From Octopus sinensis (taxonomy: Eukaryota), in assembly GCF_006345805.1 (NCBI RefSeq), contig NC_043005.1, forward strand, positions 69,626,001 through 69,690,000: DNA of 64,000 nucleotides. Reading direction: 5' to 3'. A program made the position numbers and the translations under genes. Below, piece by piece: positions 5,831 through 30,530 of this stretch. The notes under the pieces are model-generated. The model ran no database searches, was not told where the DNA came from, and saw only the letters and a list, made by a program, of their open reading frames with translations. Positions within the stretch are counted from its first letter, which is position 1, and every line of letters begins with the position of its first letter.

Positions 5831-6876
5831 TCGTCATGTTAACTGAAACTAGAATTTATTGGAAGTAATCTAGAACAGATTGCAGAAATTGACAACAAAA
5901 TTAAAGCATACTACTTCTAGAGAAAATTAGTGTACTGGTGAGATTGTTTAATTACCAGATTTTGTATTTACTATTATACACCAAATGCTGAAAATGTGTT
6001 TCTTCAGGTGAACTTTTATCAGCAGATGTGTGAGGTCCGTCTGAAGCTTTAGTGGATTCTATGTGCACCAGTTCTTAGGTCTTTGTCTGGGCAGTCATAT
6101 TCTGGTACACCATCTAGAAAATAAGGGAGAATTGTGAGGCAAGTTTTCAGTACTTGTTAGGCAATTCTAGGCATTAAGGGTCATGCAGTTGAAACCTTTA
6201 GGAAACTGAATCTCGCGCCATAACGTTAACAATCCATAAGTTTGTGCAAAGAGACTTCGGAACATTGGTTCATTTTTTTTATTAGTGACAATTAATGTAC
6301 CTAGCTAACTTATGATTCTTCGTATCCCTAGCATATAACATTCGGTATCTCACACTGATCACTATCGTATTATACGCAGGAAGTTTTTTTATACACCGGA
6401 ATATACGGTTTCTCTCTAAACGTGCTGATTACTGCAGTTGACATGAAGCGCAGAATAACAAATTAATTTAATATTCGATATTCGCAAACTCATTGTACCG
6501 TTTTTAATTAATTGTAGCTTTCTATTCCTGTTCGGAAGTGACCTTTGTTTGCGAATCATTGAATAAATATTGTTTTCATATTTGTAATTTGAAATGATTC
6601 TTTTCTAAATAAAATTTCTATTTTTAAGTGCTTTGTTTAATTCCACAACAACGGTCATGCGAAACCTATGGCAAAACATGCAAGTGAGGTTATTGCTAAA
6701 ACCTTATCGTCATTTTGAAACTCATTAAAAAGCGATACTTTTATTTATTGCAAAAGCAATTACGATCATCATGCGTTCACACACACACACACACACACAC
6801 ATACACATGCCCACACCCATGCACACACGTTTGGTCGCATATATATATATACACACATACGTTCGTATGCATATAA

Positions 6877-23040: not shown

Positions 23041-23805
23041 ATACATACTTACATACATACATACAAGCACACACTTGCCCACACACATATATGCTTACAC
23101 ATGCATTCATAGAAACCCGTACACACAGAAGTGACACAAATATATGCGATCCTGTGTGTAAGTGTATGTCTATGTGTATGTATTATATTTAGTCGAAATA
23201 ATCGATCCCTCCGTCTCATCTTTATGTTCTTAGATTTATTCTTTCCTTTCAACAACTCAAATGTAATACTTTTTTAAGAGACCGGACGGTGATATCGTAC
23301 TTATCGGTTTTCATCGATCGGGTTTGTTTGTGCGATATTGATTATAGTTAACACTCTACAAATAACAATATCCTCTGTATACGGCGTCTTCATATATGCA
23401 TTAATGTGTTTCTTTTCGTACCCATAGAAAAATGTCTGACGAAGGTTTAAAAATAAATATGAACTAAGATCTCAATTCTATTGTTCAGTGTTATTAACAT
23501 GCTTAATCTCATTCATGGCGATTGAAATAATGCAAATATATTAATAAAATGTAAGCGAAAAAATAATTCACAATACGTGTGTTGGTAAATATCAGTTTCA
23601 AATGGATATACAGTGTAACACATATGTTGTATAGCTGTTTCTAAATGTAATATTTGGTGTAAATCTGATAAAAAGAAACAGGACAGCTGTTGAAGTGTTT
23701 GCCCGGATTGATAATCCCTCACTGTTAGTTCTGTATGTGTGTGTGGGGTATATATATATATATATATAATATATATATATATATTATATATATATATAAA
23801 TATAT

Positions 23806-24092
23806 ATTACGGAGATGTATTTTCATAGCAAGTGACCTGATCTCAGATCGTGTGCTGGAACGAAAACAATTCCAGCGTTGTAGGTGTTTATAAGCCATTT
23901 AATTTGTCAAAATATTTTCGTCGCTTTGAGACCGCGACCTGTTCACTGACAAAAGTCCGTGCTGCAAACATGTCGCGGTCTCAAAGCGACGAAAATATCT
24001 TGATAAATTAAATTTAAATGTTGAAGTGAATCTAATGGCTTTTGTGTGTTTCTCGAATGGCTTATAAACACCTTCCACGTTGCAATTGTTAT
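23806..24092. mobile_element. mini fold-back Penelope-like pseudo-LTR unit in (TA)n
   Basis: Nested inverted repeats: 23865-23899 vs 24056-24090, and 23901-23943 vs 23967-24009. Unpaired tail at 23806-23864. TA-rich flanks. Confidence 0.75.
23903..23953 (-). ncRNA. type I hammerhead-like motif with compensatory G3:C8 core
   Basis: Minus strand: TTTGTCA-GTGAACA-G-GTCGC-GGTCTCAAA-GCGAC-GAAA-ATAT-TT-TGACAAA. Stem I 7 bp perfect, stem II 5 bp perfect, palindromic stem III AATATT. Confidence 0.7.
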
Positions 24093-24794
24093 ATATACAT
24101 ACATATATATTTACATACATATATACATACATATATACATACATGTATACAAGCATACATATAGCTAATACTGAGGGATTATCAATCCAGGCAAAATGCT
24201 TCATAAGCTGTCTGTCGGCACACCAGGCTAACAATAATGTTTACATAAGGGAAGAGCTCCAAGCATTCATATGGCACGGTACAAGGTAATGATTCATCAT
24301 AATTCCGTATTGTAAATCCTTGGTTGGGTTCCAGACAAACTAGTTTTACTCAGGGTATATGTAAGACAAGGAATGCATAATGGTCATTACATGCTTCTCC
24401 TTTATTGGAGCAAATTTGGCTTACAGTTGTTTCCAGTAGCCATTATAGGTACATTCTTGATATGTTTACTCAATTGGTCTATTCATCAATTGAAAAAAAT
24501 TGAGCGACCTAAAAAAAAATCAATGCTGCTTTAGTCAGACCCATTTTAAAACAGAACATCAACAGAGTGGTACGTTTATGGGGGAGGGAAGCAAAGATTC
24601 AAAAGGGTAAGTAGTATAGAGAAAAAGTGGAAGCCAGGTTACAACGGGGTAATATGGAGGAGGGAAAGGAAAGAGGACCTGACCACTTAATAGAAGGATG
24701 GAAAAAAGATGACTAAAATTTGGGAGAAGAATATCGTAAAATATTAGTTTTTATAGTCAGGTGAAACACACAGGTCGTGGGTGAGAATGTACAT

Positions 24795-29699: not shown

Positions 29700-30530
29700 C
29701 TCACAGCAGTGTTTTATCAATAATAATCAAGCTTGTTGTCATAGTAGCGAAGCTATAGCACTCAGAGTAAAGCCGTTTAGCACTTATTAAACTTGGGTTC
29801 TACTGCTGCTGCGCACGAACATTTACCGTTCTAGCTCCCATCTGCAGTTTACAGCAGTGCTTGGAAAGAAAGTGTCTAGGGTGTGATCGTCGCATTGTGC
29901 ATGAGAAAGAATGTTGTCATGGTGACGCCTACTCAGAGGCCTAAGCAAAGTTGCAGAAAATTATGGAGTTGAGTGTATGAGCCGCCCACAAGTAGACGAG
30001 TGGTGCAAACGTTTCCACCATGGCCGCAAAAAAGCCGATACTGACAAGCGTTCTGGGAGACCAACAACCAGAAGAACTGAGAAAAACATTGCAGATGCGC
30101 GTGAAGCTGTGAAGGGAAATCGTCGAATCACCATCCGTGTGTTATCACAGGATGTGCAGATTACATACGGTTCATTTCAGTCTATTATCACTGAAGATTT
30201 GGGTATGAGACGCATGTCTGCCAAGTTTGTGCCAAAATTACATTCAGTTGCACAAGATCTCCTTCATTGTGTCGAGAAAAATTTTGAAACATTTGCGTAG
30301 GCCTCTGAGCACATGTCGCCAAGACTTTCGCAAAATTTGATATAGATTCTCTGCTCAATTTTCTTTCATGTTCAATGCGACCATCACTAGCTACACACGC
30401 TCCTTCTAAATGTCGCTGTAAATAGTGGAAGCGTTCTACAACGTTAAAATGCAGTGTGCATGCTTTACACTAAGTGTTTTAGCTTCGTTATTATGACAAC
30501 TGTCCGGATAGTTATTCATCACACCACGAA
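29700..30530 (+). mobile_element. mariner derivative with two 5' ends (fold-back)
   Basis: ORF 29977-30300 (MSRPQVDEWCKRF..RSGRP..NRRITIR..EDLGMRRMSAKFVPKL) is the mariner HTH region. 30290-30530 is an inverted copy of the 5' end, including MKEKIEQRIYIKFC. Confidence 0.85.

Follow-up and report, generated by a model that had tools for sequence, protein, structure and literature searches.

Is a hammerhead-shaped RNA whose core reads GUGAACA instead of CUGANGA, so that the core pair 3:8 is G:C rather than C:G, a functional ribozyme or a decayed look-alike? The question is raised by a repeat in the genome of Octopus sinensis, which we analyzed within a stretch of 64,000 nucleotides (the window; contig NC_043005.1, positions 69,626,001 to 69,690,000). 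An earlier note on this DNA had claimed a type I hammerhead fold with G3:C8 on the minus strand, and this was confirmed by the predicted fold, a structural descriptor and a shuffle control. The motif occupies positions 23903..23953 (minus strand) and adopts a minimal type I architecture. In order, it comprises the first strand of a 7-bp stem I (23953-23947, paired with 23909-23903), the core strand GUGAACA (23940..23946; G3 at 23946, C8 at 23941 and A9 at 23940), a bulged G at 23939, a 5-bp stem II with G10.1:C11.1 and a 9-nt loop II that is the site of the motif's subfamily-level variation (23920..23938), GAA, the palindrome AAUAUU (23911..23916), U17 (23910) and the second strand of stem I, with the predicted cut at 23910 (U17)/23909. 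The palindrome is predicted to form the 6-bp intermolecular stem III of a dimer, a use suggested by related hammerheads (PMC4209133). The literal CUGANGA core, with C3 and G8, is absent. The 3:8 pair is nevertheless Watson-Crick (G:C), and U4, G5, A6, A9, G12, A13, A14, A15.1:U16.1 and a non-G at position 17 are all present. So are the features that characterize minimal type I hammerheads in Penelope-like elements (PLEs), i.e., stems I and II, G10.1:C11.1, an extra nucleotide after A9 and a palindromic stem III. We filed the motif as a hammerhead variant because it lacks the literal CUGANGA feature despite having the same position and fold.

A hammerhead descriptor that permits any Watson-Crick 3:8 pair, applied to both strands of the 64 kb, matched exactly once, at 23903..23953, and 100 dinucleotide shuffles yielded a mean of 0.01 matches with the loose descriptor and 0 with the strict one. 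Folding of the 51-base motif gave a minimum free energy of -13.8 kcal/mol (z -2.5) with stems I and II formed; stem III was absent from the predicted fold of the monomer. The 25 Rfam matches at E<=10 for positions 23860-24030 included no hammerhead family, nor did the best 150 of the 310 matches for the whole window, and the models may miss the whole PLE class. Those Rfam matches were microsatellite and hairpin look-alikes, nothing else. The window motif is thus a real hammerhead-shaped fold carrying G3:C8 in place of C3:G8.

The genomic context places the motif in the pseudo-LTR of a Penelope-like retrotransposon encoding a reverse transcriptase (RT) together with a GIY-YIG endonuclease at the C terminus; the earlier note had not named this host. 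Upstream of the motif lies about 1 kb of microsatellite-rich sequence, preceded by the endonuclease, and 34 of 60 endonuclease loci, a few of which overlap, carry a same-strand motif inside the 1.5-kb flank. At locus L162, an open frame of 1,042 codons, the first ~30 of which are flank, contains YSRYVDD, VYQIKC..C..YIGET, a CX3CxxC linker and CCHH, as judged by eye. Pfam RVT_1 matched the element protein weakly and below the cut-off (E 0.005 and 0.002), Pfam returned no GIY-YIG match, and the PDB gave no clear solved relative. Because Pfam support is weak, the domain call rests on these motifs and on the definitions of Craig 2021 (PMC8557442). The CX2-5CxxC linker with CCHH and the insertion into (TA)n are Neptune features, and we describe the element as Neptune-like; the clade placement is feature-based, the endonuclease tree containing no named Neptune or Nematis references.

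Locus L237 is a full-length element. Its pseudo-LTRs, at 1547-1748 and 5908-6050, both contain the motif in the same sense, 4.36 kb apart, and the ATG at 1657 lies ~56 nt downstream of the predicted cut; the ORF has one frameshift. The direct repeats thus contain the hammerhead and overlap the ORF start. The full-length element refuted the idea that the motif is a chance resemblance inside a MITE-like foldback element. That reading might have been drawn from the location of the motif within a long inverted repeat and from the lack of an Rfam hammerhead match, but the shuffle control, the linkage to the RT-endonuclease gene and the canonical hammerheads found at the same place in relatives leave it a negligible chance of being correct. 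An optional 3′ tail and, separately, inverted, 5′-truncated repeats occur among copies of this family (family A). The 3′ ends of 199 copies fell at 138-149 in 79/199 and at 195-204 in 91/199, ~58 nt apart; in the anole element, two RT start sites explain such a "tail" (PMC11167929).

Several further observations concern the element. On contig C30, tandem repeat arrays occur at L240:3754-4759 and L241:2850-5528; their head-to-tail pseudo-LTR units, of ~400 and ~190 bp, are retrozyme-like, with ten same-sense motifs in L241. Beside one family A copy, L094:78-858 (-) carries another, distinct Penelope-like ORF, which contains an RWK motif and is Hydra-clade-like by the description in PMC8557442. 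Searches of viral_contigs and genome_contigs yielded no relatives of the element, and a degenerate 3′ UTR pattern gave no match. Pseudo-LTR contigs were present in four sequencing runs guessed to be RNA, contigs that reveal neither ends, strand nor level.

Is the swapped pair a property of the family or of one copy? One loop type of the repeat had 2,008 exact matches in the genome, and a pattern leaving positions 3, 7, 8 and stem-loop II free had 5,287, with 0 for the reversed control. Among the first 100 matches listed, counted by eye, 99 had G3, 96 had C8, 95 had both and none had C3:G8. G3:C8 was likewise present in 139 of the 160 copies that cover both positions, a sample found via similarity and thereby favoring conserved cores. 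The expectation that G3 and C8 would be fixed in the family consensus was thus borne out. So was the prediction that a CUGANGA search would miss the family, as patterns written for C3:G8 matched the genome at control level (3 vs 2; 54 vs 42). The lone C3:G8 copy found in the family, L041, is decayed and corresponds to about what two independent mutations would be expected to produce. Four runs that carry the labels of four other organisms supplied contigs, a similarity-biased sample, in which no alternative letter made up 5% or more at position 3 or position 8. Copies of family A are up to 98-99% identical, which suggests recent activity. The 5′ ends of the copies examined, all of which had been chosen for containing the motif, did not cluster at the predicted cut.

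Variation at the subfamily level affected 0 of 42 structured positions (stems and core) versus 5 of 9 loop II positions. The Fisher values for this concentration, 5e-5, or 0.047 against the whole pseudo-LTR, overstate independence, the loop II differences representing few events. The within-family GUUGC/GCAAC changes were rejected as proof of covariation, as CpG decay yields the same pattern.

Fixation inside one family amounts to a single ancestry. The motif could then be a dead relic, with two chance founder mutations spread by amplification and no selection on the motif, a reading with which the frequency of singly decayed copies (21/160 not G3:C8) and the possible dispensability of cleavage (PMC11167929) would agree. 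We consider it very unlikely. The two subfamilies differ in loop II and not in core or stems, and comparison with related families, below, revealed three lineages in which both positions had changed, each to a Watson-Crick pair, and none in which only one had.

The same genome contains three related families, B, C and D, with 45-54% protein identity and a motif behind the endonuclease in each. Family B has C3:G8 in 17/17 copies, and one of its elements has 1,044 codons in an open frame. Of the 2,119 genome matches of family C, the first 100 listed include 91 with U3:A8 (by eye). Family D, old and decayed, has C3:G8 in 19/28 copies and shares its inner stem I with family A. Metagenome data added eight related loci, four of them with a 3′ flank. 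Three of these four carry the motif, with C3:G8 in L127, C3:G8 with G4 in L124 and U3:A8 in L125; the fourth, L126, had no detectable motif. We compared eight representatives in a structure-anchored table because MAFFT failed to align the metagenome motifs. Stem II is fully paired in 8/8, by six different sequences, and stem III is palindromic in 7/8. Position 17 is U in 8/8, and G5, A6, G12, A13, A14, A15.1:U16.1 and a non-G at 17 are retained throughout. In its catalytically active conformation the hammerhead forms the 3:8 pair. Positions 3 and 8 were altered jointly in three lineages (A, C and L125), while the other nine core positions showed two changes altogether. C9 in family B and G4 in L124 nevertheless indicate that parts of the core can drift within this clade. 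The proposal of the earlier note that the core pair had undergone compensatory change is therefore supported by the relatives, in which 3:8 covaries among C:G, U:A and G:C and stem II covaries too. This repeated Watson-Crick covariation of a pair of the active fold argues that the catalytic conformation is under selection in vivo. The endonuclease tree, built from 24 rows and 173 columns with a midpoint root, showed family A as sister to B+C+D within a 96/96 clade; the tree is unrooted and does not prove the direction of the 3:8 change. From its spread and the general consensus, C3:G8 is probably ancestral.

The sister families have peculiarities of their own. Family B (L164:7364-7411, plus strand, and 16 others) has C9 instead of A9 in 17/17 copies, and its stem III is palindromic in part. 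The large U3:A8 family, C (L242-L244, L167, L168), has a stem I of 3 bp, and family D (L169:2640-2700, L182-L206) combines C3:G8 with A10.1:U11.1 and an 8-nt palindrome. The G at core position 4 in L124:1682 (+) is seen in a single sequence, which may be a decayed copy. At G000:C14:5842382-5842414 (+), a canonical core is combined with the AAUAUU of family A and a stem II resembling that of family B, possibly representing a further family that links both. Close to one copy of family B, L180:3812 (-) shows a hammerhead-like fold that combines C3:G8 with C4 and may be due to chance.

The octopus motif resembles the hammerheads described by Cervera and de la Pena 2014 (PMC4209133) in its pseudo-LTR position, the extra nucleotide between 9 and 10.1, G10.1:C11.1, the palindromic stem III, the dispersed and inverted copies and U17, which is common there. 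It differs from them by its longer stem I (7 bp) and shorter stem II (5 bp), by its bulged base, G in octopus as opposed to a consensus H with G in one row, and by its 3:8 pair: the 56 representatives in Fig. S3 of that paper have C3:G8, U3:A8 (two) or U3:G8 (one), and none has G3:C8. Natural U3:A8 hammerheads (Perreault 2011, PMC3088659; Schistosoma Cercyon, PMC4209133) likewise represent a natural compensatory 3:8 change, and family C and L125 are of this published kind. However, U:A can be reached from C:G by transitions through a U:G wobble, whereas G3:C8 reverses purine and pyrimidine, so that every single-step path would cross a mismatch. The identical swap has been engineered in the same kind of ribozyme, where C3G/G8C partly rescues cleavage in the Poseidon element of Anolis (Frangieh 2024, PMC11167929; PMC8495972). 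That element, too, has its ORF start in the pseudo-LTR, a tail explained by two RT starts and AT-rich targets (PMC11167929). It belongs to another clade, however, and its swap was made in the laboratory, whereas the octopus swap occurs naturally, fixed across thousands of copies; moreover, the predicted cut lies ~56 nt upstream of the ATG in octopus, as against 26 nt downstream in Anolis.

With Neptune and Nematis (Craig 2021, PMC8557442) the octopus element shares the C-terminal GIY-YIG, the CX2-5CxxC linker and CCHH, (TA)n targets, pseudo-LTRs and inverted insertions, and it differs by its microsatellite-rich 3′ UTR of ~1 kb. The short head-to-tail type I arrays of L240 and L241 are reminiscent of animal non-LTR retrozymes (PMC7229834; bioRxiv 10.64898/2026.07.22.740005). 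Unlike these, family A is mostly represented by dispersed or inverted copies, and its arrays consist of portions of an autonomous element. In full-text searches covering part of the literature, G3:C8 was found in laboratory mutants only and not in a natural hammerhead. The motif is a variant of the PLE minimal type I hammerhead, of which natural U3:A8 and laboratory G3:C8 versions have already been published. The octopus elements contribute the copy number, the open ORF, the full-length element and the presence of three pair states among sister families of one genome.

What might the motif do? Taken together, our analyses indicate that the family A motif is probably a pseudo-LTR hammerhead with a fixed G3:C8 pair that self-cleaves, likely slowly, in full-length or tandem transcripts. 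Two motifs would pair via AAUAUU to build stem III; alternatively, the protein of the element might assist folding, as for the Anolis element. With G3:C8, nucleotide 8 and its 2′-OH would stay in the active geometry, and cleavage after U17 would trim the precursor RNA. Most templates would remain uncut at the 3′ motif, because genomic copies carry this motif intact. These steps are modelled on Cervera 2014 (PMC4209133) and Frangieh 2024 (PMC11167929). Calculated energies were -25.4 kcal/mol for the active dimer vs -24.8 for two monomers and -30.6 for an inactive rod dimer; as modelled by nearest-neighbor energies, the active dimer is not favored. Dimer activity of PLE minimal hammerheads is low in vitro (PMC4209133). 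The UUU triplet, which had been suspected of being slow, is not exceptional: it is also found in family C and in a Crassostrea PLE hammerhead (PMC4209133, Fig. S3).

The fold and its 3:8 pair might instead be kept for a non-catalytic task, such as binding of the RT-endonuclease or shaping of the 5′ leader, with negligible cleavage in vivo. In the Anolis element, cleavage requires protein, catalytic mutants were unimpaired for insertion in vitro, and the data reported include no RNA ends at the site (PMC11167929). In vitro, cleavage by PLE minimal hammerheads is poor (PMC4209133), the genomic copies stem from RNA uncut at the 3′ motif, and family B carries C9, all of which would suit such a task. 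Yet the pair under apparent selection belongs to the active conformation, and the core positions retained in all eight representatives exceed the needs of a binding hairpin. We therefore regard a non-catalytic role as unlikely and favor slow self-cleavage.

The function of PLE hammerheads has been called unclear, and they may merely parasitize the elements (Craig 2021, PMC8557442). A bolder interpretation of our data is possible, although we give it somewhat less than an even chance. In it, the motif would be active in vivo, the first hammerhead of this kind with a reversed G3:C8 pair to occur naturally and in high copy in an animal. PLEs would be selected for catalysis and may tune its rate down, leaving enough template uncut; a recently mobile element would have crossed the mismatch valley, and four sister families would sample three Watson-Crick states as well as C9. 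The natural series of G3:C8, C3:G8, U3:A8 and C9, with open ORFs in one genome, provides material for direct tests. At least 7,400 motif copies in the octopus genome (families A and C) escape CUGANGA-based descriptors, and elements reported to be devoid of hammerheads therefore merit a search allowing any 3:8 pair.

The window copy itself is a truncated member of the family. Its long arm (23807..23965, minus strand) is a pseudo-LTR copy that has the ~58-nt tail and, immediately 3′ of the hammerhead, has lost 45 nt between a pair of TTAAAT repeats. The arm includes a remnant of the element ORF, its first ~30 codons (23807..23898, minus strand; ATG at 23898), a frame that runs on into the RT-endonuclease protein in full-length copies. 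It is joined to a short inverted arm (23967..24090, plus strand), a 5′-truncated pseudo-LTR copy without tail that begins at A6 and forms no hammerhead by itself. TA tracts lie on either side, (TA)n at the insertion site (23749..23807) and a further TA-rich tract from 24091. This structure points to a 5′-truncated, inverted insertion into (TA)n. The copy is predicted to be inert because the antisense arm would abolish stems I and II in a read-through transcript: in a transcript spanning both arms their predicted probability is 0, and without the antisense arm it is 0.7-1.0. The earlier note had cited the inverted copy from 23967 as also keeping C8. C8 is indeed kept, but this copy extends to 24090 and belongs, as its second arm, to one and the same insertion; we rejected it as independent support.

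A second inverted repeat, 23698-23744 / 24149-24195 (47 nt, 79%), surrounds the insertion and its TA tracts. It is perhaps an older foldback element, and no further copy was present among loci L001-L206. Elsewhere in the window, positions 29926-30297 (+) hold a mariner/Tc1 transposase-like fragment, as judged by eye.
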